Origin: a virus
Lineage: Duplodnaviria > Heunggongvirae > Uroviricota > Caudoviricetes
Direction: 5' to 3' (one strand)
Virus record (IMG/VR): IMGVR_UViG_3300042892_003674
Length of the DNA stretch: 64,000 nucleotides
Below, one piece after another: positions 5,107 to 35,321 of the stretch. The position numbers and the translations under genes are program-made. The notes beneath the pieces were generated by a model. It searched no databases, was not told the origin of the DNA, and saw only the letters and a program-made list of their open reading frames with translations. How positions within the stretch are numbered: the first letter of the stretch is position 1; each line of letters starts with the position of its first letter.

Positions 5107-5112
5107 ATGTTG

Positions 5113-5199
5113 CGGAGAAAACAGGGCTCGAACCTGCACACCAGTTTCCCGATACCGGTTTTCAAGACCGGGGCGATACCAATTACGCTTTACTTCTCC
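5113..5199 (-). tRNA. tRNA-Ser(UGA), class II.
   Basis: Acceptor GGAGAAG/TTTCTCC, anticodon stem CCGGT/ACCGG with loop CTTGAAA, T-arm CAGGTTCGAGCCCTG, 87 nt. Confidence 0.75.
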
Positions 5200-5210
5200 A
5201 AGTAATTTAG

Positions 5211-5294
5211 AAGAGAGTGTGGGACTCGAACCCACAAAGGTACTACCCTTTACTAGTTTTCAAAACTAGGCCTTCATCCAGCCAGTTACTCTCC
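5211..5294 (-). tRNA. tRNA-Ser(UGA), second copy, class II.
   Basis: Acceptor GGAGAGT/ACTCTCT, anticodon stem CTAGT/ACTAG with loop TTTGAAA, variable stem AAAGG-GTAGTA-CCTTT, T-arm TGGGTTCGAGTCCCA, 84 nt. Confidence 0.75.
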
Positions 5295-5303
5295 ATATAT
5301 TTG

Positions 5304-5375
5304 TGATTCCAGAGGGAATCGAACCCCCACCTGATCGTTCGTAGCGACCTATCCTATCCGTTAAACGATGGAACC
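5304..5375 (-). tRNA. tRNA-Arg(ACG).
   Basis: Acceptor GGTTCCA/TGGAATC, anticodon stem GGTCG/CGATC with loop CTACGAA, T-arm GGGGGTTCGATTCCCTC, 72 nt. Confidence 0.8.
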
Positions 5376-5379
5376 AATT

Positions 5380-5416
5380 AAAAACAAAAAACCCACAAAC
5401 TTTGAGGTTTGTGGGT
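5380..5416 (-). terminator. Intrinsic terminator, candidate attenuator hairpin, directly upstream of tRNA-Arg.
   Basis: On the minus strand: ACCCACAAAC-CUCAAAG-UUUGUGGGU followed by UUUUUUGUUUUU. It sits 19 nt after the stop of leader ORF A and ends 2-3 nt before the 5' end of the tRNA. Confidence 0.6.
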
Positions 5417-5436
5417 ATACTAATTTTTTATATCAA

Positions 5437-5514
5437 TTATGAATACAACAGAACCTCCCTCAAATTACTTGAGCGACTAGACGAACTTGACGATGTTGTG
5501 ATAATTGTTTTCAT
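5437..5514 (-). CDS. Candidate Ser-rich leader peptide A, 25 aa: MKTIITTSSSSSSRSSNLREVLLYS.
   Basis: ATG lies 6 nt after the TTTTAATATATAAATAAT motif. Nine Ser codons (TCG, TCA, AGT, TCT) plus CGC, matching the anticodons of the five tRNAs immediately downstream: Ser GCU/GGA/UGA x2 and Arg ACG. The ORF is below the 60-aa cutoff of the ORF track. Confidence 0.45.
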   Translation of the reverse strand: MKTIITTSSSSSSRSSNLREVLLYS

Positions 5515-5535
5515 ATTATTTATATATTAAAATTT
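5515..5535 (-). promoter_or_regulatory. Conserved TTTTAATATATA upstream motif, candidate phage promoter for leader A and tRNA block 1.
   Basis: Minus strand reads GAATAAAATTTTAATATATAAATAATATG. The same motif recurs upstream of more than 12 start codons in this window. Confidence 0.45.
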
Positions 5536-5558
5536 TATTCTTTGTTTTTATTTATTTG

Positions 5559-5689
5559 ATAGAAAGGTGGGACTCGAACCCACAACCACGGCTTTAACAG
5601 AGCGAAGTAACTTATTTCATTGCTACTAATTTCTTAGAGAAAGACTGACTAAGTATGATTACGTGCTCTACCAATTGAGCTACTTTCTA
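5559..5689 (-). tRNA. tRNA-like gene with a ~57-nt structured insertion between the D-arm and the anticodon stem. It may be an intron-containing tRNA-Asn(GUU) or a tRNA pseudogene.
   Basis: Perfect acceptor UAGAAAG/CUUUCUA, canonical D-arm GCTC-AATTGGTA-GAGC, T-arm GTGGGTTCGAGTCCCAC, anticodon-like loop CTGTTAA (GUU) with a 4/5-bp stem. Total length is 131 nt against an expected ~75. The inserted segment can fold as GUAA...UUAC enclosing CTTAG...CTAAG. Confidence 0.45.
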
Positions 5690-5693
5690 TTTG

Positions 5694-5764
5694 CACGTCG
5701 ACTAGGACTCGAACCTAGAACATTGGTTTTGGAGACCAAGATGATGCCATTTCACTATCGACGT
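5694..5764 (-). tRNA. tRNA-Trp(CCA).
   Basis: Acceptor ACGTCGA/TCGACGT, D-arm GTGA-AATGGCA-TCAT, anticodon stem TTGGT/ACCAA with loop CTCCAAA, T-arm CTAGGTTCGAGTCCTAG, 71 nt. Confidence 0.8.
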
Positions 5765-5771
5765 GTTTTGG

Positions 5772-5844
5772 GTTGACAGACGGGACTTGAACCCGCAATC
5801 CCTTGGTTCACAACCAAGTGCTTTAACCATTAAGCTACCATCAA
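5772..5844 (-). tRNA. tRNA-His(GUG), with no encoded G-1.
   Basis: D-arm GCTT-AATGGTTA-AAGC, anticodon stem CTTGG/CCAAG with loop TTGTGAA, T-arm GCGGGTTCAAGTCCCGT, 73 nt. Confidence 0.7.
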
Positions 5845-5846
5845 AG

Positions 5847-5921
5847 TGACCCCGGTGGGGATCGAACCCACGACCCCTCGATTAAAAGTCGAGTGCTCTA
5901 AACCAGCTGAGCTACGAAGTC
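5847..5921 (-). tRNA. tRNA-Lys(UUU).
   Basis: D-arm GCTC-AGCTGGTTTA-GAGC, anticodon stem CTCGA/TCGAG with loop CTTTTAA, T-arm GTGGGTTCGATCCCCAC, 75 nt. Confidence 0.85.
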
Positions 5922-5930
5922 ATTATTTTG

Positions 5931-6002
5931 TGCGGACTGACGGAATCGAACCGACCTCTTAGGGACTTCACTCCTACGCTAAACCGTCTCAGCTAAATCC
6001 GC
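5931..6002 (-). tRNA. tRNA, probably Phe(GAA). The structure is irregular: A-C at positions 31-39, G32/G37, and a U-U in the T-stem.
   Basis: Acceptor GCGGATT/AGTCCGC, anticodon arm TAGG-A-GTGAAGT-C-CCTA, T-arm GTCGGTTCGATTCCGTC, 72 nt. Confidence 0.5.
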
Positions 6003-6008
6003 AATTTG

Positions 6009-6081
6009 GGTGAAAGACGGGGATCGAACCCGCGACAACTTGAACCACAATCAAGCACTCTACCACTGAGCTACAATCACC
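6009..6081 (-). tRNA. tRNA-His(GUG) with an encoded G-1 pairing C73.
   Basis: Extra 5' G before acceptor GTGATTG/CTTTCAC (two U-U pairs), D-arm GCTC-AGTGGTA-GAGT, anticodon stem CTTGA/TCAAG with loop TTGTGGT, T-arm GCGGGTTCGATCCCCGT. Confidence 0.7.
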
Positions 6082-6088
6082 ATGTTTG

Positions 6089-6161
6089 TGGACCCTCAGG
6101 GAATCGAGCCCTGTCCTTTGGATTTTCAGTCCAACGTACGCACCAGCTATACGAAAGGTCC
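6089..6161 (-). tRNA. tRNA-Phe(GAA).
   Basis: Acceptor GGACCTT/AGGGTCC, anticodon stem TTGGA/TCCAA with loop CTGAAAA, T-arm CAGGGCTCGATTCCCTG, 73 nt. Confidence 0.75.
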
Positions 6162-6171
6162 ATTATATTTG

Positions 6172-6245
6172 CACAAGCCAAGGGAGTCGAACCCTTTCCA
6201 TCCGAGGTTTTGGAGACCTGGTGCATACCATTATGCTGACCTGTA
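6172..6245 (-). tRNA. tRNA with a CCA anticodon (Trp-like, second copy). The D-arm and the 26-27 junction are irregular.
   Basis: Acceptor ACAGGTC/GGCTTGT, D-stem GCAT/ATGC, anticodon stem (C)AGGT/ACCT(C) with loop CTCCAAA, T-arm AAGGGTTCGACTCCCTT. Confidence 0.5.
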
Positions 6246-6250
6246 TTTTG

Positions 6251-6323
6251 TGATCCCGGTGGGACTCGAACCCACAACCTTCTGATTAAAAGTCAGAAGC
6301 TCCACCAATTGAGCTACGAAATC
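6251..6323 (-). tRNA. tRNA-Lys(UUU), second copy.
   Basis: Acceptor GATTTCG/CGGGATC, D-arm GCTC-AATTGGTG-GAGC, anticodon stem TCTGA/TCAGA with loop CTTTTAA, T-arm GTGGGTTCGAGTCCCAC, 73 nt. Confidence 0.85.
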
Positions 6324-6329
6324 ATTTTG

Positions 6330-6402
6330 TTCCCCCGCCGGGAGTCGAACCCGGCCCCATAAGTTAAAAGCCTATTGCCTACCGCCAGTTTGCTACGAGG
6401 GA
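6330..6402 (-). tRNA. tRNA with a UUU-type anticodon loop (third Lys-like). The D-arm is poor.
   Basis: Acceptor TCCCTCG/CGGGGGA, anticodon stem ATAGG/CTTAT with loop CTTTTAA, T-arm CCGGGTTCGACTCCCGG, 73 nt. Confidence 0.55.
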
Positions 6403-6404
6403 TT

Positions 6405-6445
6405 ATAAAATAAAAAAACCCAAACTTAATTTTAAGTTCGGGTTT
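6405..6445 (-). terminator. Intrinsic terminator, candidate attenuator hairpin, immediately upstream of tRNA block 2.
   Basis: On the minus strand: CCCGAACUU-AAAAUU-AAGUUUGGG, perfect only as RNA thanks to a G-U pair, followed by UUUUUUUAUUUUAU that ends 3 nt before the 5' end of the tRNA at 6402. Confidence 0.6.
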
Positions 6446-6606: not shown

Positions 6607-6675
6607 ATTCTCTCTTTTTGTTTTTTTGTTATTTTTATAGTACAAAAGTAATAAAAGTTTACTTATCTACCTAAT

Positions 6676-6920: not shown

Positions 6921-7199
6921 TTATAAACCAAGAATTTCTTCAAGTTTTCTATCTCTATACTCTTCTAAAGTTATAAAATCCCTAGCATAATACTGACCAA
7001 GTTTGTTTTTTCTTTCATCATAAACATCATATATAGGACAAATACCATAGTCACCTAAAAGTTTGACTTCGGTATATACACCATAATAAGTTTCATTCAC
7101 AACTAATTCTTTGTTTCTTGTATAGGAAATGTCTGGCTCTGCTATACAAAATATTTTTAAAATCATATTAAAGTCTTTTAATGTCAGGTAAAGTTTCAC
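6921..7199 (-). CDS. Hypothetical small protein.
   Basis: 92-aa ORF. Confidence 0.5.
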   Translation of the reverse strand: MKLYLTLKDFNMILKIFCIAEPDISYTRNKELVVNETYYGVYTEVKLLGDYGICPIYDVYDERKNKLGQYYARDFITLEEYRDRKLEEILGL

Positions 7200-7434
7200 T
7201 TGAATTAAGCATGTTACGAATAACTACTTTTTTTAACGGTGTTAGTTTTTTGTTTTTTAAAGCCTCTTCCACAATAAGGTGGTATGATAAACCCGATATA
7301 CTGTGACTTTTAAAGTTAGTTGACTCTTTTTTAACGAGTTCATCATAATTTGCACTTGGCATAGATTCTTTAAATAATTGACGATGTATATCGAGAATTA
7401 TCTTTTCCTCTTTACTAATTTTGGTCATTTCCAT
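7168..7434 (-). CDS. Hypothetical small protein.
   Basis: 88-aa ORF; its 3' end overlaps the next ORF by 32 nt. Confidence 0.45.
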   Translation of the reverse strand: MEMTKISKEEKIILDIHRQLFKESMPSANYDELVKKESTNFKSHSISGLSYHLIVEEALKNKKLTPLKKVVIRNMLNSSETLPDIKRL

Positions 7435-7481: not shown

Positions 7482-7685
7482 ATGCCCGCCCGCTCAAAAC
7501 AGCAATTAAAGTACATTTTTGCGATGCGTCGTAAATATAAAAACAAAAAAAGTGCTCCTAAACATATGAAGTGGGTATTTAACAAAGATTGGACCCACGA
7601 TGTCAATGTAAGTGGGTTACCAACCAAAGTTAAAAGCTTTCAAACTTATGTAAGTGAGAACTACGATGCTACTACTAAAAAGTAG
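7482..7685 (+). CDS. Candidate small Lys/Arg-rich basic protein, possibly nucleic-acid binding.
   Basis: 67 aa from ATG 7482: MPARSKQQLKYIFAMRRKYKNKKSAPKHMKW... It begins with an unusually GC-rich stretch, gcccgcccgc. It sits in an otherwise non-coding gap. The competing antisense ORF 7415..7627 is hydrophobic junk. Confidence 0.3.
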   Translation: MPARSKQQLKYIFAMRRKYKNKKSAPKHMKWVFNKDWTHDVNVSGLPTKVKSFQTYVSENYDATTKK

Positions 7686-8914
7686 TTTTTCTTACCTCTC
7701 TGAACTATAATAAATTTGTTATTTATTAAATCACCATCAGTTACGATGTATATTTCTTCTCTTTTTATTTTATTTACTGCAACAGAGTTTTCTTTTAAAG
7801 CTCGTCTTGCTTCATTATTAGATTTTAAGAAGCCAGTTTTAAATAGAATGTCGGTCATTGATATACCATTCACAATCTCTTCCATTGGAACATTTGCCAT
7901 TGGTAATCCACTAAATATATCTAAAATAGTTTCATTATCAAGTGAATTTAAGTTACCATTGTTAAATAGAATGTTTGAAGCTTCTACTGCTTTGTTAAAC
8001 TCTTCTTCACCATGTACCATTATAGTCAATTCTTTGGCTAATGTTTTTTGTAATAAAAACAAATGTCTAGCTTTATTGTGTTCTTCTATTAAACCATCAA
8101 TAGTTTCTTTATCTAAAAATGTAAAGATTTTAATAAATCTTTCTGCATCTGCATCATCTGTGTTTAACCAAAATTGGAAAAACTTGTAAACAGATGTTTT
8201 ATCTTTATCTAACCATATATTCCCACCTTCTGACTTACCAAATTTTGTACCATCTGCTTTTGTTAAAAGTGGACAAGTCATAGCAAATGCTTCTCTACCT
8301 GGGAACATCTTGTGTATCAATTCTGTACCTGTTGTTATGTTACCCCATTGATCAGAACCACCCATTTGTAATAAACAGTTATGTTCTTTATTAAGGTGTA
8401 AGAAATCGTATCCTTGAATCAACTGGTATGTAAATTCAGTGAAAGACATACCTTCACCTTCGATACGGTTTTTTACAGATTGTTTTGATAACATGTAATT
8501 TACGGTAATTCTTTTACCGATGTCTCTTACAAAGTCTATGAAACTAAACTTTGACATCCAATCGTAGTTGTTTAGAACTGGTGTATCACCTAAAAATCTT
8601 GTTAAAGTATTTCTGATACCTTCGACGTTTTTATTAAGTGTTTCTTCATCTAAAAGATTTCTTTCAGATGATTTCCCAGATGGGTCACCGATCATACCAG
8701 TAGCACCACCGACAACTGCGATTGGATTATGTCCAAAGTTCTTCATATGTTTTAAAAGAATGATTGGAACTAAACTACCAATATGTAGAGAATCTGACGT
8801 TGGATCAAATCCAATATAAGCGGTGGTGGCTTCTTTTAAAAGTTGAGCCTCCGTTCCGGGTATAATATCATGTACTAACCCACGCCATTTTAATTCTTCT
8901 ACTATATTTTTCAT
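7661..8914 (-). CDS. tyrS: Tyrosyl-tRNA synthetase, bacterial type.
   Basis: GFDPTSDSLHIGSLVPI (HIGH-type motif), KFGKS (KMSKS), C-terminal S4-like domain, 417 aa. Confidence 0.9.
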   Translation of the reverse strand: MKNIVEELKWRGLVHDIIPGTEAQLLKEATTAYIGFDPTSDSLHIGSLVPIILLKHMKNFGHNPIAVVGGATGMIGDPSGKSSERNLLDEETLNKNVEGIRNTLTRFLGDTPVLNNYDWMSKFSFIDFVRDIGKRITVNYMLSKQSVKNRIEGEGMSFTEFTYQLIQGYDFLHLNKEHNCLLQMGGSDQWGNITTGTELIHKMFPGREAFAMTCPLLTKADGTKFGKSEGGNIWLDKDKTSVYKFFQFWLNTDDADAERFIKIFTFLDKETIDGLIEEHNKARHLFLLQKTLAKELTIMVHGEEEFNKAVEASNILFNNGNLNSLDNETILDIFSGLPMANVPMEEIVNGISMTDILFKTGFLKSNNEARRALKENSVAVNKIKREEIYIVTDGDLINNKFIIVQRGKKNYFLVVAS

Positions 8915-9318
8915 TATGCTAATACTTCTTTAATAACTTCTGATACAACTTTTCTGTCCACTTGTAAAGTAGCAAACTCTTTCATAATTCCACCAACATT
9001 GGTAATCCCTGATGCTACAAGTGCACTAACTTTTACAACAACATCTTCTCTTGTCATAGCAGCTGGAAGTAAAGCTTCAACCATTTCTAATTGAGTTTTA
9101 GATTCCGTGTCACCAGAAGTTGCAATAACTTCTTTAAGAGATTTCGCAGTTTTATTAAGAATTTTAATTACTTCTGCATCAGAAAGACAATCTACTCCTG
9201 TATTTTTTTCAATAGTTTGGATCTCTCCTTTCACTACAGAAAGTAAGTTTTTTGCTACGACATTTTTCTCTTTGAAAGCAGTCATGTAGTCTTTGCTAAT
9301 TTGTTCTTTTAAATTCAT
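8914..9318 (-). CDS. GatB/YqeY domain protein.
   Basis: 134 aa with a typical YqeY architecture. Its stop overlaps the tyrS start by 1 nt. Confidence 0.75.
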   Translation of the reverse strand: MNLKEQISKDYMTAFKEKNVVAKNLLSVVKGEIQTIEKNTGVDCLSDAEVIKILNKTAKSLKEVIATSGDTESKTQLEMVEALLPAAMTREDVVVKVSALVASGITNVGGIMKEFATLQVDRKVVSEVIKEVLA

Positions 9319-9557
9319 AATATTTTGTTTTTAATAATTTCTAAAAAAATACACTTTTATTTTCATATTTTATATTTAATATCGAGGTAGTTCACTGTTT
9401 TTATTAAAAGTGTATAAGAAAACGTATTTCACAGCTAATTACTACCATAAACACTAACTATAACTATGTGACCAAAACTTATTCTCTAACAGGTCAGTTG
9501 TAGTAGCTCATTATTTATTGTACAAATATACGGTAAAGTTTCAATTTAAAAAAATAT

Positions 9558-9574
9558 ATTTTAATATATAGTTT
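9558..9574 (+). promoter_or_regulatory. Upstream motif TTTTAATATATAGTTTATG, an exact 17-mer shared with the sequence upstream of 38240(-) and 46641(+).
   Basis: Ends at the ATG of ORF 9575. Confidence 0.5.
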
Positions 9575-11248
9575 ATGAAATACTTAAAATTATATGAAGG
9601 GTTTGAATCTGATAGAGTTAGTGCAATACTTTCATTTCTAAATAAAAAGATAAAGAATGAGTATAACACTCAAGATTTTTTAAAAATATTAAAAAAACTT
9701 GCAGATAAATTTGATTTCCCTCTAAGTACTTTAAGTGATAAAGAAATACAATACTTACCAGTAAATAAAGCGTTGTCTGTTGGTAAAGGTGAAGAAGCAA
9801 TGAATCCATCTGGTACTTACTGTATTAAGTATTGGTTTTCATTGGAAAAAGGATATTTATGTAGTACTGGAACTGGAAATAAGACTATGGATTATAATAA
9901 GTATAATTCTTATGGTTCTTATAGAATGTCAAATGAAGAAGGATTAGATCAATCTCACTTAGCTTACTTAGCTAGAGAATATAAAATAGGTGGTATTATT
10001 ACTCCAGCTAGATTAGGAGATTTAACAACTGGTGATAAAGTAGTAATGGTTTGTGGTGATGATTTTAATGGAGATCCTGCTTATTTAACTTTTGGAGAAA
10101 TATATGGTGATAATAGAAGAAATGGTGATGATGTTGAATATTACTTTTATCAAAATGATCATGAGGGTACTGATCCTGGTTCAACTAGAAATAATATCGT
10201 ATTACCAGATAGATATAATCTTTATGCGGGTAATGCTGCTTATCAATATTCTTGGTCATTAGGAAGTGCAGAAGATCCATCAGATGATCATTGTATGATG
10301 CATAAAGTAATACTAGATGATAAACCTCTAAGGTTTAGAGACGAAGATTTAGATAAGATGAATAAGACAGAAGAATCTGTTTGGGATTTTAATTTACCAT
10401 TAGATGGAACAACTTTGGAAGAATGGAATGGTAGAAAGACTCAAATTTTTAATAGAGTGAGTAAGGAAGCAAATTTTGCAATTGTTCTTTTTCTTGATGA
10501 TATAATAATTAAAAATGTTGATGATACTAAATCTGATATTATGAAAAGAAGAAAGTCACTTAAAAAGGGTGCATTGGCTTTAAAGAAACCAGAAGATATT
10601 AGAAAAGAAAATGTTGAGAGGTATCTAACTACTTTATTTACAAAATTAGGAATAGAAAAAGATAAACAAGAATTTAAAAATCTCAACTCGGTTGTTCTAT
10701 CATCAATTATTGGAGATTATTTTATAATTGCTCTTTATAATAGTAGTGCTTATATTGATAGATTATCAGACTTTATTACATTTTTGTATAGACTAATGTC
10801 AGAAAGTGATAACTCATATAATTTTGAAAAAACTTATGATTTATTTAAAACTATTAAGAAAAGACGTTTAAAACAAACTACTGCTTACTTTAATGGTATT
10901 AAAACTATTAAAGATACTGATAATCAAAATGCAGAAAGGATGTCTGATATAATTGACAGAATAACTAATATAGGTCAAATTTTATCAAATTCAATTAAAA
11001 ATAGAGATATAGAAACTATTGAAGATCTTAAATCAGTACAAGTTAGATTAGCATCATTATATGAATTAGTACAAGATGATATTTTTATACTTTCTAGAAA
11101 TACTAAAAATATTCTTATAAACTTAGATGGTGATACTTCAGCATTAAAACTAATTATGAGTAGATTAAGATATAGTGAAGAAGAGTATAATAGTGATGTT
11201 AAAAGATTAGATAAACTTGAAAAAGTATTTAAAGATCTTTTAAGATAG
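9575..11248 (+). CDS. Hypothetical protein; member of the N-terminal MKYLK..F.E signature family.
   Basis: 557 aa; N-terminus MKYLKLYEGFESDR. Confidence 0.8.
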   Translation: MKYLKLYEGFESDRVSAILSFLNKKIKNEYNTQDFLKILKKLADKFDFPLSTLSDKEIQYLPVNKALSVGKGEEAMNPSGTYCIKYWFSLEKGYLCSTGTGNKTMDYNKYNSYGSYRMSNEEGLDQSHLAYLAREYKIGGIITPARLGDLTTGDKVVMVCGDDFNGDPAYLTFGEIYGDNRRNGDDVEYYFYQNDHEGTDPGSTRNNIVLPDRYNLYAGNAAYQYSWSLGSAEDPSDDHCMMHKVILDDKPLRFRDEDLDKMNKTEESVWDFNLPLDGTTLEEWNGRKTQIFNRVSKEANFAIVLFLDDIIIKNVDDTKSDIMKRRKSLKKGALALKKPEDIRKENVERYLTTLFTKLGIEKDKQEFKNLNSVVLSSIIGDYFIIALYNSSAYIDRLSDFITFLYRLMSESDNSYNFEKTYDLFKTIKKRRLKQTTAYFNGIKTIKDTDNQNAERMSDIIDRITNIGQILSNSIKNRDIETIEDLKSVQVRLASLYELVQDDIFILSRNTKNILINLDGDTSALKLIMSRLRYSEEEYNSDVKRLDKLEKVFKDLLR

Positions 11249-11593
11249 TAAATATAGATCATGTTGTCTTGCTTCTAACTCTGTCAAAAGATAAACACAT
11301 TCTCTTCTTAGATCCTTTAATTTTAAAAAGTCTGCGGTATTTTTAGTTTTATTTAATTGTGAATTAAGATTATCAATTTCAATTGTTATTAAATTCTTCA
11401 TTAAATTCATTTCCTTACTAACCTCTTCTTTTAAATCAAGTGCTAATGATTTAAAATATGGATTTGCCATGATAACACCTTTATAATTATTAGAACTAAA
11501 GTTCTTCATAAGTCTTTTGAGTGTATCAATGGCTTGTTCCTCTGTTGTTGATAGATGTAGCTTATCGAGATATTCTAATAAGGTCAATTTCAT
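11240..11593 (-). CDS. Hypothetical coiled-coil protein.
   Basis: 117 aa. Confidence 0.6.
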   Translation of the reverse strand: MKLTLLEYLDKLHLSTTEEQAIDTLKRLMKNFSSNNYKGVIMANPYFKSLALDLKEEVSKEMNLMKNLITIEIDNLNSQLNKTKNTADFLKLKDLRRECVYLLTELEARQHDLYLLS

Positions 11594-11596
11594 ACA

Positions 11597-12028
11597 TTAT
11601 ATATTTCTTTGCATCTCTCTGGTAAGGTCTCTTTCTTTGATAGTTTCACGCTTATCCCAAGTTTTCTTACCTTTAGCAACTGCTATTTTAATTTTAATTC
11701 TATTATTCTTAACAAACATACCAAGTGGAATTGCGGTTATACCTTTGTCTTCCAATTTTCGTTTAATTCGAGTAATTTCTTTTTTATTTAAAAGAAGTTT
11801 TTTATCACGATTTTCTTCGTGTTTATCTAAAGTATGTGCAGACTTATATGCAGCAACTTTTAGATTTTTTATCCAAACTTCATTATCTTTTATATAAATG
11901 AAGGCATCAACCATGGTAACATTACCCATTCTAACGGACTTTACCTCACTTCCAACCAGTATAATACCACAGTCAAATTCTTCTATAAAAGTATATTCGT
12001 AACGGGCTCTTCTATTTAATGCTATCAT
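11597..12028 (-). CDS. smpB: SsrA-binding protein SmpB.
   Basis: Strong SmpB signature, including RRARYEYTFIEEFDCGIILVGSEVKS and IAVAKGKKTWDKRETIKERD. Confidence 0.9.
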   Translation of the reverse strand: MIALNRRARYEYTFIEEFDCGIILVGSEVKSVRMGNVTMVDAFIYIKDNEVWIKNLKVAAYKSAHTLDKHEENRDKKLLLNKKEITRIKRKLEDKGITAIPLGMFVKNNRIKIKIAVAKGKKTWDKRETIKERDLTREMQRNI

Positions 12029-12587
12029 ATTTTATAGTTTTGTGAGAAGATGATTCTCTGTTCTTAATAACTTGTATTACTTTATTATCACTTTGTTGAC
12101 TTATAACCACTACCAAATCTGAATAATATAAAGGTGTCGAACCACCCATAAAAGCATCAATCATATTATTATCTCTATTTAGGCCATTAGATTGTAGTGG
12201 ACAAGTAAGTATCAGTTTAATATCATTTATATCCTTACCATTTCTACTATCTCTTAAACAATCTCTTATATCGTAGATAGTATTTTTTATTATACCTGCT
12301 CGGTTTATATCTTCATTAGTAAATTTTCTTTGTTCAATATAAGAATTTCTTATATCATTTATATCTAATAATAGGTAATCGATTTTCTCTTCTTCATTTA
12401 AAACTTGATCAATTTTCATATCTCTAAGAATTGACTTCACAGAAAAAGATGAACTTAGATCTATTTTCTTGGTTCCCCCAAGATTAGAAATAATTTCATC
12501 TTTAATTCTTTCATCTGAAAATCGATAACCAATTAAGGTTGTCTCTGTTTTACTTATTAGATCATATAAATAATCTATATTTTCCAT
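12012..12587 (-). CDS. Hypothetical protein.
   Basis: 191 aa. Confidence 0.65.
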   Translation of the reverse strand: MENIDYLYDLISKTETTLIGYRFSDERIKDEIISNLGGTKKIDLSSSFSVKSILRDMKIDQVLNEEEKIDYLLLDINDIRNSYIEQRKFTNEDINRAGIIKNTIYDIRDCLRDSRNGKDINDIKLILTCPLQSNGLNRDNNMIDAFMGGSTPLYYSDLVVVISQQSDNKVIQVIKNRESSSHKTIKYDSIK

Positions 12588-12907
12588 TAGTTTAAGTATT
12601 GCTCAACAAGTTCAGACAATTTTTCTTTAGTTGTCATACCAACACTTCTATCTACAATTTCTCCGTCTTTATAAACCAAGATTGTAGGAATGTTTCTGAT
12701 ACCTAACTCAGCAACTTTTTCACCATTTGGTGTTGCATCTAATTTACCAACTGATACTCTTCCTTGGAAATCAACTGAAAATTGATCTACAATTGGTGCA
12801 ATTTGACGACATGGTCCACACCAAGTTGCCCATATATCAACTAAAACAACTCCTTCTTGTGTAAACTCATTATAGTTACTTTCTGATAATTCTGTTATAA
12901 ATCCCAT
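12587..12907 (-). CDS. trxA: Thioredoxin.
   Basis: WCGPC active site, 106 aa. Confidence 0.9.
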   Translation of the reverse strand: MGFITELSESNYNEFTQEGVVLVDIWATWCGPCRQIAPIVDQFSVDFQGRVSVGKLDATPNGEKVAELGIRNIPTILVYKDGEIVDRSVGMTTKEKLSELVEQYLN

Positions 12908-12961
12908 AATTTTTATTTAGTTTTTATTTATATTATATTTTACTGAAAAGTTTTAAATTGG

Positions 12962-14182
12962 TTAGTGTTCACTGTCCTTTATTTTAGATAATACCGCTTG
13001 AACCCTTGTATTATGTACCTCATCAACAATTTCTTTTCTTACTGAAAGTTCATAAAGTAAAGCGGTTGTATCATCAATCTCTTGTCCTGGTTCAATAGTA
13101 TGTTTTTCTAATACTGAAAAAGCAATTGTTGGATCTTCTTTATATAGTTCCAATAATGATTTTAATATTGTAACTTGTTCAGTTAGTTTATAACCTCTTA
13201 GATTAAGAATTGTCTTTGGTAAAAACTTAATTGTTTTTGAAAGTAATTTCATATCTTCTAAATCAACACCACCATCTACATAATCTTCATTTATAAATAA
13301 AGGTCTCAATTGATTCCATATATCCACCAATTCCGGTTTCATATAAATGTTTCTTAGATAAAATAAGAAATCGTCACCTTTATGAATTGCAAGTAGATTA
13401 TTATCTAATAATACCTCTTTTTTAGTTTTTAAAGTCCATAGATTTACATCTTTGTCATATGTCGTTTTGACGTGTGTCATACAATCTAAATCTTGTTCTA
13501 TTGTAAAATAGTTTTCAAGTATCTTATGATTGTTAAACATATTAAAATATCTATCTTGAAATCTAACTTTATAAACATCTTGAAGTTGACGAGATAAGAC
13601 CCCTTGAATAATCTCTAATTCAAATAAGTCTAAATCAACTTTTAGTTCTTCTGATTTCTTTACAATTCTAATTGCCGTATGACACGGTGTTTTCAAATTA
13701 GTTATCTGTAATTTACCTTTATTTAAGAACTTCTCAAATTCTGGTGTCCAATAAAACTTATCTTCTTCAATTGAATAACCAATTGCGGTACAATTTATAT
13801 CAAATGATTTGATAATGATTTCTGGATTATGAGTATTTGATTTATAACTAACGTAGTTGAATATACCTTCTGTAGTTGATTCACAAATAGAATAATAGTT
13901 TTTGGCTCTATCAATAAATCTTAGTCCAGAATAATCATCATACCAGACATTTTCTTCATCTTCTTTAAATGAATAAAGGTATTCTCTTCTATCTTCGTTA
14001 TAGTTTTCTAAGAGTCCATCAAACAAAAAAACATCAATATCATTGATGATTGCTTTTGTTCCAGAAACCTCTTCCCAGATAAGATTTGAAATAGAACCTC
14101 CTGCAATAAATCCTCTTTTAGGTAATCCCCATTGTGATTTTATTTTATCAAGAGCTCTTTTTGCTAACTGTTCAACGTTCAT
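12962..14182 (-). CDS. Putative Pol-beta-superfamily nucleotidyltransferase. Possibilities include a CCA-adding or tRNA-repair enzyme or a cGAS/CD-NTase-like enzyme; this is unresolved.
   Basis: 406 aa; N-terminal GGS...(22 aa)...DIDVF (GS-DxD-like) motif. Confidence 0.7.
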   Translation of the reverse strand: MNVEQLAKRALDKIKSQWGLPKRGFIAGGSISNLIWEEVSGTKAIINDIDVFLFDGLLENYNEDRREYLYSFKEDEENVWYDDYSGLRFIDRAKNYYSICESTTEGIFNYVSYKSNTHNPEIIIKSFDINCTAIGYSIEEDKFYWTPEFEKFLNKGKLQITNLKTPCHTAIRIVKKSEELKVDLDLFELEIIQGVLSRQLQDVYKVRFQDRYFNMFNNHKILENYFTIEQDLDCMTHVKTTYDKDVNLWTLKTKKEVLLDNNLLAIHKGDDFLFYLRNIYMKPELVDIWNQLRPLFINEDYVDGGVDLEDMKLLSKTIKFLPKTILNLRGYKLTEQVTILKSLLELYKEDPTIAFSVLEKHTIEPGQEIDDTTALLYELSVRKEIVDEVHNTRVQAVLSKIKDSEH

Positions 14183-14322
14183 TACTTTTGTTTTTTAATA
14201 TTTAAAACTTTTGCTACGTGGTCATTTATTACTCTAACAGTAGTATCAGAAGAAGTCGGATTTACATCATTCACTTCTTCTGATTGTTCTTCTGTTGTTT
14301 TTATTTCTTTGTCTTTATTCAT
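14182..14322 (-). CDS. Micro-ORF, 46 aa and acidic, with TAATG stop/start coupling. Possible anti-sigma or regulator.
   Basis: MNKDKEIKTTEEQSEEVNDVNPTSSDTTVRVINDHVAKVLNIKKQK. Its ATG immediately follows the sigma gene stop, and its TAA overlaps the ATG of the next gene. Confidence 0.35.
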   Translation of the reverse strand: MNKDKEIKTTEEQSEEVNDVNPTSSDTTVRVINDHVAKVLNIKKQK

Positions 14323-14925
14323 TTAGTCTAAATACATTTCATCTATTTGTTCAAACTCTTTCCTAGATTGTTCCATCAAAATCTGACGACCATTTCTAAT
14401 TTGAGATTTTATTGTAGATAGATTCTTTCCTAAAGTATCTGCAATGTCTTTGTATTGCATTCTTTCTATCTCTCTCATTATAATAACTGTCTTATACGGC
14501 TCTTTTAACTCGTCGATATGTTTTTTCATTACATCTGCTTTTTGTGTGAAAACATCATAGATAGCTTCATTACTTTCAGTTTCTTGTATGAAATCTTTTA
14601 AAGTAGTTCCTTCATCATCAAACTCAATGTCTAATGATATGTTTCTATTTTCTAGTTTTTTATCTTGTAAAGATAAGTTTTTTGCGATTGTGAATAACCA
14701 CGTTGAGAATTGTGATTTTTCTTTTTGATACATTTCTATTTTTTCCAGAGCTATCATAAATGAGTCTGTCGAAATATCTTCTGCTTTTTGTACATCATTA
14801 CAAATTCTTGATGTAAAGTAGATTAGTTTTGGGTAATACTTTTGGTAAAGTGTTGCGAAGTCTTTACCTGTTCTTTCTTTAAAAATTTTCTCTTGTTCAG
14901 AGAATGGGGTTTTGCTTAATTCCAT
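14323..14925 (-). CDS. Sigma-70 family (ECF-like) RNA polymerase sigma factor.
   Basis: Region 2 (STWLFTIAKNLSLQDKK) and region 4 HTH (YKDIADTLGKNLSTIKSQIRNGRQIL), 200 aa. Confidence 0.85.
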   Translation of the reverse strand: MELSKTPFSEQEKIFKERTGKDFATLYQKYYPKLIYFTSRICNDVQKAEDISTDSFMIALEKIEMYQKEKSQFSTWLFTIAKNLSLQDKKLENRNISLDIEFDDEGTTLKDFIQETESNEAIYDVFTQKADVMKKHIDELKEPYKTVIIMREIERMQYKDIADTLGKNLSTIKSQIRNGRQILMEQSRKEFEQIDEMYLD

Positions 14926-16423: not shown

Positions 16424-16712
16424 TTAATATATTTTTTAATCTATTTTCTCTTAATTCTTTAACAATAAAACTTTTATCCTTATTAAACTCGTAGTAGTAA
16501 CGAAATTTATAAGCATTTAAAATAGTATGTAGTTGGTCTTTATTTGCCTTATGAAGGTTCTTAATAATACCCTCTTCGACATTTTTGAAAGTAGCTGCTT
16601 CTATATTAGAAGAAAAATTCTTGGCTCTAATTGCAAAGTCTTGTAAATCTAATATGTCTTTTTGAAGATTCTCTAATCTTTCAATAATTACTTCTGATAT
16701 ATCTCCTTTCAT
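16404..16712 (-). CDS. Hypothetical protein.
   Basis: 102 aa. Confidence 0.55.
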   Translation of the reverse strand: MKGDISEVIIERLENLQKDILDLQDFAIRAKNFSSNIEAATFKNVEEGIIKNLHKANKDQLHTILNAYKFRYYYEFNKDKSFIVKELRENRLKNILNGEEEK

Positions 16713-18547
16713 TATGATAATAAGTTTTCTAATTCTTCTACTGTTAAGATTACAACTCCAAGAGAGATAGCTTTCGTTTCTTTACTTGAGCCCGAACCTT
16801 TTGATTTCATTACTAAGTATGTTGTAGTTTTGGATACAGAACCAGCAACTTTACCACCACGTGATTCAATTACTTCTTCTAAATCTTTTCTACGAACACC
16901 AGTAAATACAAATGATTTACCTTCTAAATCTGTGCCAACTTTTACTGTTTCTACTTTCTCTACAATTTTTACAGGAAGATTTCCTACAAATGTAAAGAAA
17001 TTATCGTAATTATCCACAAAAACTTTTGCAGAAATTTCAGCAAATCCTTCAATCTCCATAACTTGGTCAACTGTAGGTTTAGTTGTAAAGTGTTCTAATA
17101 AAGCTAACTTCTTACTACCTAATCCTTTGAACAAGCCTGTGGCGTGTTGAAGTTTAGATAGTTGAACATCAGTAACCGATTTTTGAATTGAGTTATAAAC
17201 AATCTGAGCTTTTCTTTTACCAAATCTGTCAATCTTCTCTAATTGATCTGTAGTAACATTTAAAATGTCTTCGATAGTTTTATAACCAGCATCCCATAAT
17301 TGAGTGATGATACCTTCTGACACATTGTCTGCTTCTAAGATTTCAAAGAACGCAATATTTTGTCTTATCTTTTGATCGTCAGTCTCAGTCAAAGTAACTA
17401 ACTCAATACCATTTTCATTCCATTCGATTTCAGTACCGTCAACAACTGGCATAACAAAGTCAACAGTTTCTAATACTTCAACAATCAATGGAATAACCAT
17501 ACCACTTCTCTTAACTACAACTTTCGCACCAATTCCTAAACCCATATCTTTTACGAATTTAGCATTGTTACCAGTTACGTTAGAAACAGTAACACCGTCT
17601 AATTTAATTGGAGTAATATGTAAAACAGGTTTTAAGAGTCCGTGTTTAGAGATATTCCAAGAAATACCTAATACTGTCGCCTCTGCTTTTTGTTCAAAGG
17701 AGTCGTGTTTAAATGCTCTTGCGTAACAAGGATTGTTAGAAGAAGTCTCACGACCTAGACTATTTTGTAAGTTAAGATCATTTACTTCAAGAATTATACC
17801 ATCGATTTCATAATCAGTAGACCATCTTTTGAATAACTCTACTAAAAAGTCTTCTGTAATATCTTTGGCGATAAATAAATGATAGTTTACTTTAACTTCT
17901 TGACCAGTGTTTAATATATCCAATATGTCTGACTTAGTTCTAAAGTTAAATCCTTCATTTGGTATAGCACCATATTTAATAAATTGTAAATCTTTTAGGG
18001 GTTCAGTTACCTCTTTTGAGTTAAGTAAGCCAGCAACTAAGTTTCTTGGATTGGCAAACTCTGTTGAATATTTATCAATAAAAACTTGTTTAGGCATGAT
18101 AACCTCACCGTAAGTATATGTGAATGGATCACTTTTTAAAGATAAGTGATTTTTTATTAGTTTGTAGTGTTCATCTGACTTCTGGCCGAACTCACCATCG
18201 CCTCTAGTCCAGGTATTTGTATTGATTTCGTCATGACATAAAGAAAGTCCATCATATTTTGGAGTACATACAATTTCGGTATTCGGATTGATACCTTTTA
18301 ATCTTAACCATGTGTGTATGTCTTCAATGGTTTTAATTTTATTCATAGAAGCCATATCGATAGGTAATCTTGACTTTCTTGTTTCATCAAGAACTTCAAT
18401 TCCTACTTTTGAAAAAATTTCATTTTCTGGATCATATGAATATAATAATTCAAGTAATGAATCATACTCTTTATCAGACATAATTTCATTACCAGTTCTA
18501 TAAGCGATATTTGCTTCTTCTAATTTTGTTACTATTCTATCTATCAT
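16712..18547 (-). CDS. ligA: NAD-dependent DNA ligase (LigA).
   Basis: KYDG adenylation motif without the Arg seen in ATP ligases, OB and HhH regions, and a C-terminal BRCT (KSFVFTGVRRKDLEEVIESRGGKV); 611 aa. Confidence 0.85.
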   Translation of the reverse strand: MIDRIVTKLEEANIAYRTGNEIMSDKEYDSLLELLYSYDPENEIFSKVGIEVLDETRKSRLPIDMASMNKIKTIEDIHTWLRLKGINPNTEIVCTPKYDGLSLCHDEINTNTWTRGDGEFGQKSDEHYKLIKNHLSLKSDPFTYTYGEVIMPKQVFIDKYSTEFANPRNLVAGLLNSKEVTEPLKDLQFIKYGAIPNEGFNFRTKSDILDILNTGQEVKVNYHLFIAKDITEDFLVELFKRWSTDYEIDGIILEVNDLNLQNSLGRETSSNNPCYARAFKHDSFEQKAEATVLGISWNISKHGLLKPVLHITPIKLDGVTVSNVTGNNAKFVKDMGLGIGAKVVVKRSGMVIPLIVEVLETVDFVMPVVDGTEIEWNENGIELVTLTETDDQKIRQNIAFFEILEADNVSEGIITQLWDAGYKTIEDILNVTTDQLEKIDRFGKRKAQIVYNSIQKSVTDVQLSKLQHATGLFKGLGSKKLALLEHFTTKPTVDQVMEIEGFAEISAKVFVDNYDNFFTFVGNLPVKIVEKVETVKVGTDLEGKSFVFTGVRRKDLEEVIESRGGKVAGSVSKTTTYLVMKSKGSGSSKETKAISLGVVILTVEELENLLS

Positions 18548-18616
18548 AATTATTATATTTTTACAAATATACGAATTTTATTTTAAATAACAAATAAACC
18601 ATTAAAGAAAACTGAC

Positions 18617-18651: not shown

Positions 18652-21600
18652 ATGGTTCAAAGTTCATTTCCAAAAGTAGCGGATCAAATAATAACGTATA
18701 ATAAAAATATTGTTGAAATTTTATCTAAGATCAATTCTTTAACGACAACAACAGATTCTTCTGTTACTCTTCAAGTATATGATGAGAATGGTGTATTGAG
18801 AAATTTTACATTACCTTCTTTTACATCATTAAAAGCAGATATTGATAGATTAAATAATAATATTAATTCGCTTTATAGTATTGATGCAGCAGGTGCTTTA
18901 ATTCAAACCTCAACACAAAATAAATACAAAAAGATTATTACAGTTGATTTGAATAGAGATCCTACTCCAATTGGAAGTTTGGGTACTTTAAGTACTTTTA
19001 AATCTTCTGCCAATTGGTTTTTCGATTCACTTATGGATCCTATGGTTTCTGTAGAACTTGACTTATCGGGTAAAATAGAAGATAATGTTAGAAAGTGTTT
19101 AATTAGACGATATATTGTAGATTTTGCAAAAAACGCTGATGGTTCTTTTACTACATTAGGACAATCTGCACTTAATAGTTATAATCAATTATTTAGATCG
19201 AATGCAAATATTATTATATCGGAATTTGAAAACTGGTATACTACTACTACTGGATTATTAAATCCAACTAATCCTAAGTATGATGAACAAATGTTTGATT
19301 TAGAACCTAACAACTTACTATATGATGGTCAATTTAGTGTTTTAAGAATACAAGAAGATAGATTGAATAGAAAACTTTGGTATGTTCTAGACACTTTAGA
19401 TTATTTAGTAGTTGATACAAATTCAACTAGAAAGCTATCTATTGGAGATGAGGTTATTATAAATTCAGAAAAAACATCAACAAGATATAAAATATTAGAA
19501 GTTTCTACTGCAGAATCTAATCCAAGAATTAGAGTGGAAAGAGTTGAGGGTATCGAACCAATTCCGGTTGGAATTGGAACTTTGAAGATCTATTCATCTG
19601 TTATCTATACTAAGAGGGTTAGAGTAAGTGTTGGTTATAATGAAAGAAATGTTCTTTTTGTTAAACCAGTAAATGCTGATAATAATCTAGTTGCAAAAAA
19701 ATGGAGTTTAGGTACTGGTTATTATACAAATGATTTGAGACTTACTTCTGATTCTAGTGCAAATGGATTATCAATGGAACAATTCTATATTGATTACGTT
19801 TATGATTATGGTGTTGTTCTACAAGATTTAGTTGCAAAGAAAACACCAAACTCATTGGCAGGGACACCTGGATCACCAGTACTTGCATTGGATAACTTTA
19901 AAGTAGTTCAAATAAATAAACACCTTACAGATACACCAGACTCTAACTTAGTTAAACAAAAACATAATTATCAATTGTCTTTGAAGTCAGAGATACAACA
20001 ATTACAAGAAGCTATTTTATCAAGAAATAAAGCAGCAAAATTTACTAAGTTTAAATCAGACTCTGCAAAAAAACAAGCGGATTTAGAAGTTGAAGAACTA
20101 ACAAATAAGAAAGATAGTAAAAGTAAATTACTTGCTTCTGTTACTCAAGAAGTTATTGACTTGTCTAAGGATCCAAAAAATAAAGTTGCACCTAAATTTA
20201 GTGTAAGAGGTTTCTGGACAATTCCAAGTGCAGTAGTTACTACTGGTACTAAACCTCAAGAAATTGTACAATTTAGAATACAATATAGATATACTAGTAA
20301 AGATGGTAGAGAAGCACCTGTAGATACATTTACAATTACAGATTCTCAAAGTAAGGCTTCTTTTTCTAACTGGACAGAATTTAAAACTGATGCAAGAAAG
20401 AGAGAGTATAACACTTCAACAGGTGAATATACTTGGGCTATTGAGGATGTTACTAGTGCAGATACTCCAAATATTAATCAAATAGATATTCCGATACAAT
20501 CTAATGAAAGAGTTGATATTAGAATTAAATCTATATCAGAAGTAGGATGGCCCGAGTCTGCGGTTGAATCGGACTGGTCTGAGATTATTACAATTGATTT
20601 CCCAGATGATCTAAATACGATTGCAAATGAAAATGATTTTATTTTAACAACTGCAACTAAAGAGGATTTAAAAATAAGTATGAATTCTGAGTTGTCTGCA
20701 AAAGGTTTAGATAATCACTTAGCAGATACAGTAACCGTAAATAATGTTACGTTCCATCATGATGCGAAAAAGATTTTATCTGGTTTCCAAGATGAGAATG
20801 GTGTTTCATTAGATTTGTATGTGTATATACAAAAGTTATCTGATAGAATTACATCATTAGAAGAGAAAATTACAAGAGCTAAAGGTGAACTACAAATTAT
20901 TATTCTTAGAAATAATCAAGAGTTTATAGTAAATAATGGTTCTGAGACAACATTTAATGTTGAATGTGAAGACTATTGTACTTTATTTAATGGTCAAGGT
21001 GCACCAACTGGTAGAGTTTATGAAAATAATATTTATGTTATTAAAGATTTTGTTATGAAAATTAAAAATAATGCAAAGGAATCATTACTAGGTTTACTAT
21101 CTAATAGAACTTATTTACAAAGTAGTTCTGTGTATAATACACAAGCACCTCAAAGTTTTTGGGTAAATAATCAAGACGAGTTATTGACAAATGATGTTAT
21201 TGAAACTAGTCAAACAAGAACACACTTAGATAATCAATTTGTTTGGCAAATGAATTATGATTCTATTACACAGAATACTGTGGCAAAATTATCTGAAAAT
21301 ATAGGTAATACATTTGATAATCCGACAGTAAATTCAAACTCTATAACAAATATACTTTCAACAAGTGATTATAATGTTGGTTATAATGAATCAAGTATTC
21401 TAAAATTTATTGGTAATAATAAATCCTTATTAGACCCTGCAAAATGGAATGATGTAACTGTATCAATTGCATCAACAACCAAATTCTTAACAACTATACA
21501 TCCAGTGGTTAAAAGTTTAGAGAATATACAAGAGAATAATAGTGATAAGGTTAAAACAGTAAATGTTGGTGATAAAAATTCTATTATAATTCCATTAAAT

Positions 21601-21858: not shown

Positions 21859-21867
21859 TAGTTTAAA

Positions 21868-30973: not shown

Positions 30974-30976
30974 GAT

Positions 30977-30993
30977 TGTATATATTAAAATTT
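30977..30993 (-). promoter_or_regulatory. Upstream motif TTTTAATATATACAATC immediately before the ATG at 30973.
   Basis: Minus strand reads AAATTTTAATATATACAATCATG. Confidence 0.45.
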
Positions 30994-31000
30994 ATAAATA

Positions 31001-31029
31001 AAAACACCCCTATTATAAATAGAGGTGTA
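31001..31029 (-). terminator. Intrinsic terminator downstream of the flotillin gene, on the minus strand.
   Basis: Minus strand reads ACACCTCTAtttataaTAGGGGTGT (8/9 bp) followed by TTTTTATTTAT. Confidence 0.5.
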
Positions 31030-31049
31030 ATTTTCTTAAAAAGGTTTTA

Positions 31050-32945: not shown

Positions 32946-32987
32946 AATTTAATTGTTTTTAATTGTTTTTAATTCTATTGCTAATTT

Positions 32988-35217: not shown

Positions 35218-35321
35218 ATTTCGTTTTTATATTTTGAAATACAAATATACAACTATTTTTTAGCAAAACAAAACTAAACTAATAAATTTTTATCAATATA
35301 AATAACTAAAACAATTAAGAT

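Follow-up and report, generated by a model that had tools for sequence, protein, structure and literature searches.

In a 64,000-nucleotide stretch of viral DNA (the window in what follows; IMG/VR virus record IMGVR_UViG_3300042892_003674, Caudoviricetes), a block of genes for translation-associated and other auxiliary proteins lies next to an array of tRNA genes. An earlier note, made from the sequence alone, had singled out six of these genes, encoding a tyrosyl-tRNA synthetase (TyrRS), a YqeY-type protein, SmpB, a thioredoxin, a nucleotidyltransferase (NTase) and a sigma factor, as one translation-associated set flanked by that array, and the list of open reading frames (ORFs) places all six on the minus strand where the note had located them. 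The genes are indeed clustered; however, a plus-strand gene for a 557-amino-acid (aa) protein interrupts them between the 117-aa gene and YqeY and makes two units of the set, and three conserved ORFs of 117, 191 and 46 aa had gone unnamed. The window as a whole is AT-rich (G+C ~26-35%), with co-directional ORFs in long runs. The features of the block are given below in the order of minus-strand transcription; loci and contigs of relatives carry L numbers.

14323-14925, minus strand: sigma-70 factor of the extracytoplasmic function (ECF) type, 200 aa, with regions 2 and 4 only (PF04542, Sigma70_r2; PF08281, r4_2; TIGR02937).
14182-14322, minus strand: acidic ORF of 46 aa between the sigma factor and the NTase, called as a gene in L007-L011; lineage-specific.
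12962-14182, minus strand: Gad2-family NTase, 406 aa, with an N-terminal NTase domain (GGS...DIDVF) and an all-helical C-terminal half.
12587-12907, minus strand: thioredoxin, 106 aa, active site WCGPC (TIGR01068, 98.6 vs a cut-off of 96.8; PF00085, 88 bits).
12012-12587, minus strand: 191-aa protein of the RecA/Rad51/DnaB fold, overlapping the thioredoxin stop and the SmpB start.
11597-12028, minus strand: SmpB (SsrA-binding protein), 143 aa, C-terminal tail present (NF003843, TIGR00086, PF01668).
11240-11593, minus strand: conserved 117-aa protein (ORF list), downstream of SmpB, 36-95% identity in relatives.
9575-11248, plus strand: 557-aa protein (ORF list), 26-88% identity and the same place in relatives, absent in L041.
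9523-9530, minus strand: putative -7 promoter box, TATATTTG, fitting TAnnTTTG, upstream of the structured RNA and YqeY, in a block conserved in relatives (alignment A8).
9342-9450, minus strand: 5' domain of a structured RNA (covariance model R1, 87 bits, E 1.9e-16).
8914-9318, minus strand: YqeY/GatB-tail-like protein, 134 aa (PF09424, phrog_1460), its stop overlapping the TyrRS start (TAATG).
7661-8914, minus strand: TyrRS, 417 aa (TIGR00234, PF00579, PF22421), with an S4-like C-terminal domain.
6921-7434, minus strand: two small conserved ORFs of 92 and 88 aa (ORF list), 88-92% identical in L005 and L006, between TyrRS and the tRNAs.
6416-6445, minus strand: putative terminator-like hairpin with T-run from a consensus scan, located just upstream of the tRNA array, in which TTTTTATTTT follows a stem of 13 bp.
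5112-6402, minus strand: 12 tRNA genes (ARAGORN and Rfam tRNA matches), the flanking array claimed earlier.

The earlier domain calls hold for TyrRS, YqeY, SmpB, thioredoxin and the sigma factor, all of which score above the curated cut-offs of hidden Markov models, and the NTase has a nucleotidyltransferase fold. TyrRS reaches 384.8 bits in TIGR00234 (cut-off 113.8) over residues 1-415, and SmpB lies well above NF003843 (177.9 vs 130) and TIGR00086 (166.4 vs 119.1), with 173.8 in PF01668. YqeY attains 40.6 bits in PF09424 (cut-off 27) over profile positions 1-143 and matches phrog_1460 at E 5e-17; a phmmer search of YqeY against the PDB returned TAL-effector repeat matches only, which were judged spurious. 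The sigma factor scores 68.1 vs 42.9 in TIGR02937, its best subfamily being Sig70_bacteroi1, below the cut-off of that model. The 191-aa protein contains no recognisable Walker A motif. The 557-aa protein has no Pfam, NCBIfam or PHROG match, the 117- and 46-aa proteins have no assignable family in these three collections, and PHROGs give no function for the 117- or 191-aa protein or for the 406-aa NTase.

When the 7.3-kb region was compared by megablast with 50,697 phage records, no match appeared, and relatives were therefore reached through protein similarity. They are the uncultured megaphages LR745206.1 (634,780 bp) and LR756502.1 (642,428 bp), with Lak phages more distant. By tblastn, ~9-58 kb of the window is collinear, in inverted orientation, with positions 290-336 kb of LR745206.1, a genome matched by 39 of the 54 window proteins, mostly within one inverted collinear stretch. 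The block itself is collinear with both megaphage genomes at 30-76% aa identity. The whole block, TyrRS included, recurs in two IMG/VR contigs (L005, L006) at 82-98% aa identity; the same gene order is found in five contigs (L007-L011) that encode an identical SmpB, and again in a 623,734-bp contig and a 51-kb contig, where TyrRS is 74-76% identical. When the YqeY alignment was used as query to scan IMG/VR, 16 loci were returned, about 11 of which keep a core of NTase, thioredoxin, 191-aa protein, SmpB, 117-aa protein, 557-aa protein (reversed), YqeY and tRNA array; the sigma factor is also visible in several of them. A distant locus, L038 (~50% identity), retains the reduced set of sigma factor, thioredoxin, SmpB and YqeY. 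The order sigma factor, NTase, thioredoxin, 191-aa protein, SmpB, 117-aa protein, YqeY and tRNA array is found in more than 20 metagenomic contigs, and the genes are therefore not scattered, the core being collinear in LR745206.1, LR756502.1 and the IMG/VR and metagenome contigs alike. In its gene content and order the window matches Mahaphage-clade genomes, an assignment drawn here from gene order for a clade that is formally defined by terminase/capsid phylogeny.

These relationships leave it scarcely credible that the sequence is a bacterial chromosome or plasmid and that its genes are ordinary housekeeping copies. TyrRS, SmpB, thioredoxin and the sigma factor are standard bacterial genes, and mislabelled bacterial fragments do occur in the phage collection; however, curated megaphage genomes are collinear with ~45 kb of the window, the relatives are IMG/VR viral contigs, most of the large ORFs are without a family match, and the SmpB and NTase families are found on contigs of 400-656 kb in the same gene order.

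Conservation differs along the block. The sigma factor is its best-conserved gene (76% identity to L001 and 66% to L002). The 46-aa ORF is absent in L001 (LR745206.1), where the sigma gene abuts that of the NTase, and it is devoid of cysteine, so that a zinc-binding anti-sigma motif (HxxxCxxC) is not possible. In L026-L029, YqeY is 86-88% identical to the window copy, compared with 67% for SmpB, 53-58% for thioredoxin, 47% for the NTase and 29-30% for the 557-aa protein; YqeY is thus far closer than its neighbours, which suggests recombination around YqeY and the tRNA array. Insertions are also observed: a LAGLIDADG-like ORF follows SmpB in L026 (2639-3508), a GIY-YIG/NUMOD endonuclease follows the NTase in L041 (3767-4480), where a dihydroorotate dehydrogenase gene additionally precedes SmpB (5336-6358), and a ClpP-like protease follows the sigma factor in L002 (16841-17407). 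According to one explanation, the region has no functional unity at all and is a permissive site beside the tRNA array that collects auxiliary genes, host genes and mobile elements, its conservation reflecting shared ancestry only. The homing endonucleases, the dehydrogenase and the ClpP-like gene inserted in relatives, the suggested recombination in L026-L029 and the varying content of the position after YqeY, described below, would all be accommodated by it. We nevertheless consider this explanation distinctly improbable, since the core order is kept at protein identities down to ~30-60%, with the reduced form still present in L038, since stop and start codons overlap, and since a structured RNA with compensatory changes is held at a fixed position.

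This RNA was found by aligning the DNA upstream of YqeY across relatives, where the non-coding conservation far exceeds that of the flanking proteins. In its 5' domain, two 5-bp helices (P1 and P2), with an AGUA/GAA internal loop between them, form a hairpin, whose loop pairs with a downstream strand in an 8-bp pseudoknot (P3); in the window a U7 run then follows, ~23 nt before the YqeY start codon. Across 13 sequences, 94.9% of the cells of the 5' domain are paired, compared with 31-49% when the 3' partners are slid, and compensatory changes affecting both sides occur in 10 of 18 pairs, values that none of 500 shuffles reached. Most relatives possess an extra 3' domain of ~190 nt that a helix of its own closes and that a U-run follows, and RNAalifold identifies four helices in this domain (23 pairs, 98.7% of cells paired, 7 compensatory pairs); further covarying helices of this domain were read by eye from the alignments. 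The window lacks the 3' domain, as do L025 and L030. None can be discerned in the sequence of L038 either; there the 5' domain begins 3 nt past the stop codon of SmpB, and a canonical terminator comes after it. Copies in relatives include L001:22625-22965 and L031:5668-6000, and LR745206.1 carries a single copy.

Against Rfam 15, with tmRNA, T-box, RNase P, GOLLD and ROOL among its families, the RNA gave no match at the gathering threshold, and with the full-length L001 copy none of relevance at E<=10 under permissive filters. A divergent tmRNA (transfer-messenger RNA) was rejected for it, as the alignments show no visible T-arm, 3' CCA-type end or tag frame, and ARAGORN and Rfam are negative. 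A T-box leader and an RNase P RNA, which had been considered for a UGGU loop and for AAAGUC and ACAGAA resemblances, produced no covariance-model match even at E 10. An IMG/VR match to the RNA seed motif, L054, proved a chance match and was dropped. The position of the RNA is fixed: it lies past a host-type promoter box and ends in a helix and U-run 25-35 nt before the YqeY start, which fits a regulatory leader or a small RNA. Such a leader could sense tRNA status or be bound by YqeY, and could thereby control the expression of YqeY, of the aminoacyl-tRNA synthetase (aaRS) and perhaps of the tRNAs; a role as a partner for an SmpB that lacks its tmRNA is less likely. That the pseudoknotted RNA constitutes a new class of phage RNA and is functionally part of the module is offered as a tentative proposal, to which we attach rather low confidence.

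YqeY itself is 51-98% identical across the 16 IMG/VR loci. It shares with bacterial YqeY and with the C-terminal domain of Deinococcus GlnRS its Pfam domain, an association with tRNA recognition and translation-gene neighbours. The phage protein is encoded directly before an aaRS, RtcB or the tRNA array, and whereas bacterial yqeY follows rpsU, the yqeY of the window follows the structured RNA.

The tRNA array comprises two genes for Ser-tga, one for Arg-acg, two each for Trp, His and Phe, and three for Lys-ttt, with near-tandem duplicates, and an array of similar content follows YqeY in relatives. Three small ORFs in all lie between TyrRS and the array. The array beside TyrRS contains no tRNA-Tyr; in LR745206.1, tRNA-Tyr genes occur ~22 kb further along. 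Two other tRNA-related observations were made in that genome. ARAGORN reports two odd tRNA-like genes, at 407364-407437 and 419836-419923, with a four-base (gtag) and a two-base anticodon, which may be frameshift-suppressor-type tRNAs or artefacts. A full-length GOLLD RNA (RF02032, 287 bits) lies beside tRNAs in L020 (24875-25280, equivalent to LR745206.1 ~420.9-421.3 kb), and none is found in the window.

The class I motifs of the TyrRS are present as DSLHIGSL (HIGS) and KFGKS. Among bacterial-like TyrRS homologues, the HIGS variant is found in 84 of 85 and KFGKS in 83 of 85, and both are the same as in the Flavobacteriaceae enzyme. The homologues form two groups: the first comprises phage-clade copies of 412-425 aa with 74-97% identity, on contigs that reach 624 kb although many are short, and the second starts from 68-70% identity and contains named enzymes of Flavobacterium, Tenacibaculum and Flavobacteriaceae. 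The HIGS and KFGKS variants are common to both groups. The window lineage has this TyrRS, whereas the complete LR745206.1 genome encodes none anywhere. The gene is thus specific to its lineage, which took it from a Flavobacteriaceae-like donor. The earlier proposal of an island rather than scattered host-derived genes is borne out in that the block is a conserved phage block, but it does not extend to the TyrRS, which is host-derived and missing from LR745206.1. Jumbo phages of Enterobacteria, such as Yersinia phage fHe-Yen9-04, likewise encode a TyrRS, 39-41% identical to that of the window; the two represent separate acquisitions, the window enzyme being far closer to those of Flavobacteriaceae (68-70%).

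Directly after YqeY, LR745206.1 encodes a non-discriminating AspRS (NF003483, 474 bits vs a cut-off of 353) in place of TyrRS. The same position is empty in LR756502.1 and several IMG/VR contigs and is filled by RtcB in L029, and in more distant contigs YqeY adjoins an Rnl1-type RNA ligase (L039) or an S-adenosylmethionine synthetase. Judging by these differing contents, a variable slot in which tRNA enzymes have repeatedly been placed lies between YqeY and the tRNA array.

T4 Rnl1 counters the anticodon nuclease PrrC, and the tRNA-repair ligases beside YqeY, namely RtcB in the slot of L029 and the Rnl1-type enzyme of L039, invite a second explanation, in which the block is a counter-defence module that shields translation from abortive-infection systems acting by tRNA cutting or ribosome stalling, rather than a take-over device. 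Spare tRNAs, the swappable enzyme (aaRS, RtcB or Rnl1), SmpB and the Gad2-like enzyme would then repair or bypass the damage caused by defence, and the membership of the NTase in the Gad2 family speaks for such a function. However, the slot in the window lineage holds a TyrRS and not a repair ligase, the host has no known defence system, and thioredoxin, DNA ligase and the sigma factor fit no better here than under a translation reading, which leaves the counter-defence explanation unlikely, although more probable than the two discussed above.

SmpB is canonical throughout. It aligns with residues 9-149 of the 156 in the Aquifex SmpB chain (1p6v), tail included, at E 3e-36. Its best 120 matches share 66-100% identity, none of them bears an organism name, and several lie on contigs of 400-649 kb; the Lak phage SmpB is 50% identical. 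This deep set of phage-contig and Lak homologues indicates that SmpB is old in this phage group. No tmRNA was detected by ARAGORN or Rfam in the 64-kb window, and none in all 634,780 bp of LR745206.1 (ARAGORN; Rfam at gathering threshold), a genome for which ARAGORN lists 59 tRNAs and Rfam gives tRNAs, the GOLLD RNA and a DUF805b motif. Compared with the tmRNA-SmpB pair of bacterial trans-translation, the protein of the window is likewise full length and above equivalog cut-offs; however, unlike in that pair, neither the window nor the complete phage genome closest to it yielded a tmRNA gene. The phage SmpB would have to use host tmRNA or serve another role, and a canonical SmpB with no detectable phage tmRNA most likely acts on the tmRNA of the host.

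The NTase had been counted among the translation genes, a view that its family membership does not sustain. The protein carries a precomputed PF26128 (Gad2) annotation in related contigs, and a profile-profile comparison (hhalign, alignment A1 against nine Gad2 homologues taken from Supplementary Table 10 of bioRxiv 10.1101/2023.05.01.538930) gave a probability of 93.7% and E 1.9e-7 over residues 22-176. Gad2, a 400-aa predicted nucleotidyltransferase of SPbeta-like phages, is the second anti-defence protein against Gabija; its knockout sensitises the phage to Gabija (bioRxiv 10.1101/2023.05.01.538930), and its mechanism is still unknown (PMC12904381). The window NTase and Gad2 have in common a length of ~400 aa, an N-terminal NTase domain and the motifs IAGG..., NDxDxxF and FDF/FDI. 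A class II CCA-adding enzyme or poly(A) polymerase would combine the head fold with neck and body domains and a corresponding sequence profile, a combination that the NTase does not present. On this evidence, the NTase is placed in the Gad2 NTase-domain family, its C-terminal half being different, and an anti-defence role is more likely for it than one as a translation factor.

The two stop/start overlaps reported earlier are real: the TAATG at 8914, where the YqeY stop meets the TyrRS start, is read directly in the sequence, and the ORF coordinates give the one-base overlap at 12587. In addition, the 46-aa ORF is flanked by TAAATG and TAATG junctions. The -7 promoter consensus of the Bacteroidetes type, as in Bacteroides and Flavobacterium, is TAnnTTTG, and besides the box before the RNA the following features bear on the transcription units.

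16712-18547, minus strand: NAD-dependent DNA ligase (Pfam DNA_ligase_aden, OB, BRCT).
18564-18571 (before the DNA ligase), 7625-7648, 6643-6650 and 6421-6428, minus strand, intergenic: other TAnnTTTG boxes, by motif position.

No TAnnTTTG box occurs in the 118-nt gap before the sigma gene, and the other gaps from the ligase to the 117-aa gene measure at most 54 nt. With a box before the ligase and none before the sigma factor, and with gaps this short, the genes from sigma factor to SmpB probably continue the DNA-ligase operon, and the ligase is the probable first gene of a long minus-strand operon that runs through the sigma factor to the 117-aa gene. Such an operon makes an exclusively translational interpretation of that half of the block weaker still. 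The thioredoxin, the sigma factor and the RecA-fold protein of 191 aa are not translation factors, and the proposed translation island is therefore retained in part: SmpB, YqeY, the slot for an aaRS or tRNA-repair enzyme and the tRNA array make up a coherent tRNA and ribosome theme, but the block as a whole is functionally mixed, and a take-over of host translation is a conjecture about its use.

Taking these observations together, we propose, with a probability of roughly 60%, that a Mahaphage-type megaphage (relatives of 620-650 kb), most likely one infecting Flavobacteriia, carries this region as a conserved module composed of two minus-strand units with one plus-strand gene between them. 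Unit B (9530 to ~5100) would be tRNA-centred and would comprise the host-type promoter box, the pseudoknotted leader RNA, YqeY, TyrRS, the small ORFs and the tRNAs. Within it, YqeY is predicted to be translationally coupled to TyrRS, and the slot after YqeY would act as a variable cargo site for tRNA enzymes, occupied by TyrRS, non-discriminating AspRS, RtcB or nothing. The most likely task of the captured TyrRS is to keep tRNA-Tyr charged in the course of an infection. Unit A (~18570 to 11240) would be a mixed auxiliary operon of ligase, small ORFs, sigma factor, 46-aa ORF, NTase, thioredoxin, RecA-fold protein, SmpB and 117-aa protein, in which SmpB most likely loads host tmRNA and thereby rescues ribosomes stalled on phage messages, and the sigma factor would redirect the host RNA polymerase. 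Of this, the identities of the genes, their synteny, where TyrRS came from, the structure of the RNA and the lack of a tmRNA in LR745206.1 are demonstrated; where the operons begin and end, what any of the products does biochemically, which host is infected and whether its tmRNA is used are predictions from sequence.

Several results weigh against this proposal. In the one system tested, Deinococcus GlnRS, the YqeY domain raised tRNA binding in cis only (PMC1865053). The tmRNA negative for the window covers 64 kb of a genome that is probably ~600 kb, elsewhere in which a tmRNA could lie, and both ARAGORN and Rfam could miss a tmRNA that is very divergent. A scan for sigma-70-type promoters performed no better on the window than on shuffled sequence (60 vs 56 matches). 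As regards the NTase, BLASTP against the experimentally tested Gad2 proteins is not significant (E 0.047 over 30 residues), a single-sequence hhalign comparison yields a probability of 5%, and the C-terminal 230 residues have no match to Gad2, the likeness being confined to the NTase domain. Moreover, the closest solved structures to that domain are tRNA CCA-adding enzymes, so that a tRNA-directed activity is possible.

Two further proteins of the window had been added to the translation theme. The S1-domain protein (27218-28306) aligns through residues 30-361, with about four S1 repeats, to rpsA models, and to this extent the call stands; its scores are, however, far below the cut-offs. The ORF at 34133 has some similarity to the C-terminal domain (CTD) of L7/L12, but the likeness is marginal (Pfam 24.1 vs a cut-off of 25.9; PDB 1dd3, E 0.0035). 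Protease and membrane-associated genes flank this ORF in a run at 29042-36431; they encode an M28 peptidase, a 631-aa protein of the SPFH/Band 7 type and an insulinase-like M16 peptidase. Elsewhere in the window, positions 18652-26067 encode two very large conserved proteins, of 1068 aa (75% identical to LR745206.1) and 1399 aa (54%), without a Pfam or NCBIfam match; the sole match of the 1068-aa protein is phrog_29329, a family with no assigned function. A 549-aa protein with a C-terminal Hint/intein-type domain (Intein_splicing, PT-HINT; 44952-46601) is flanked by giant ORFs of 1792 and 1530 aa that have no family match, and in a 1275-aa multidomain protein (58349-62176) a methyltransferase domain accompanies two glycosyltransferase domains (GT1 and GT9/heptosyltransferase-like).

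Huge phages, including the Mahaphage clade, which is predicted to infect Bacteroidetes, are described as encoding tRNAs, host-related aaRSs, S1, L7/L12, SmpB, tmRNAs and sigma factors, and the interception of host translation has already been proposed for them (Al-Shayeb et al. 2020, PMC7162821). The relatives of the window resemble the Mahaphage clade, Lak phages included, in that both exceed 600 kb and carry large tRNA sets, aaRSs, S1, L7/L12-like proteins, SmpB and sigma factors (PMC7162821). The main text of that article, as covered by a term search, lists such genes by category, without a fixed order, a YqeY slot, a tmRNA-less SmpB, a Gad2 identity or an upstream RNA. Translation-support genes in megaphages are thus already known, and the window is a further example; what is added here is the order of the module, the variable slot, the origin of TyrRS from Flavobacteriaceae, the placing of the NTase in the Gad2 family, the protein with a RecA fold, the seeming absence of a tmRNA partner for SmpB and the structured RNA.

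For annotation, an easy error is corrected, as the NTase belongs to an anti-defence family. The module also raises two questions, namely which role a canonical SmpB plays in a phage that is seemingly without tmRNA, and what the nature is of a conserved structured RNA that precedes YqeY and matches no described family. For megaphage biology, the comparison indicates that translation genes are arranged in a stable, ordered module in which a single tRNA-enzyme position can be swapped, and for an uncultured megaphage lineage the origin of TyrRS, together with the promoter boxes, points concretely to Flavobacteriia as the predicted host.

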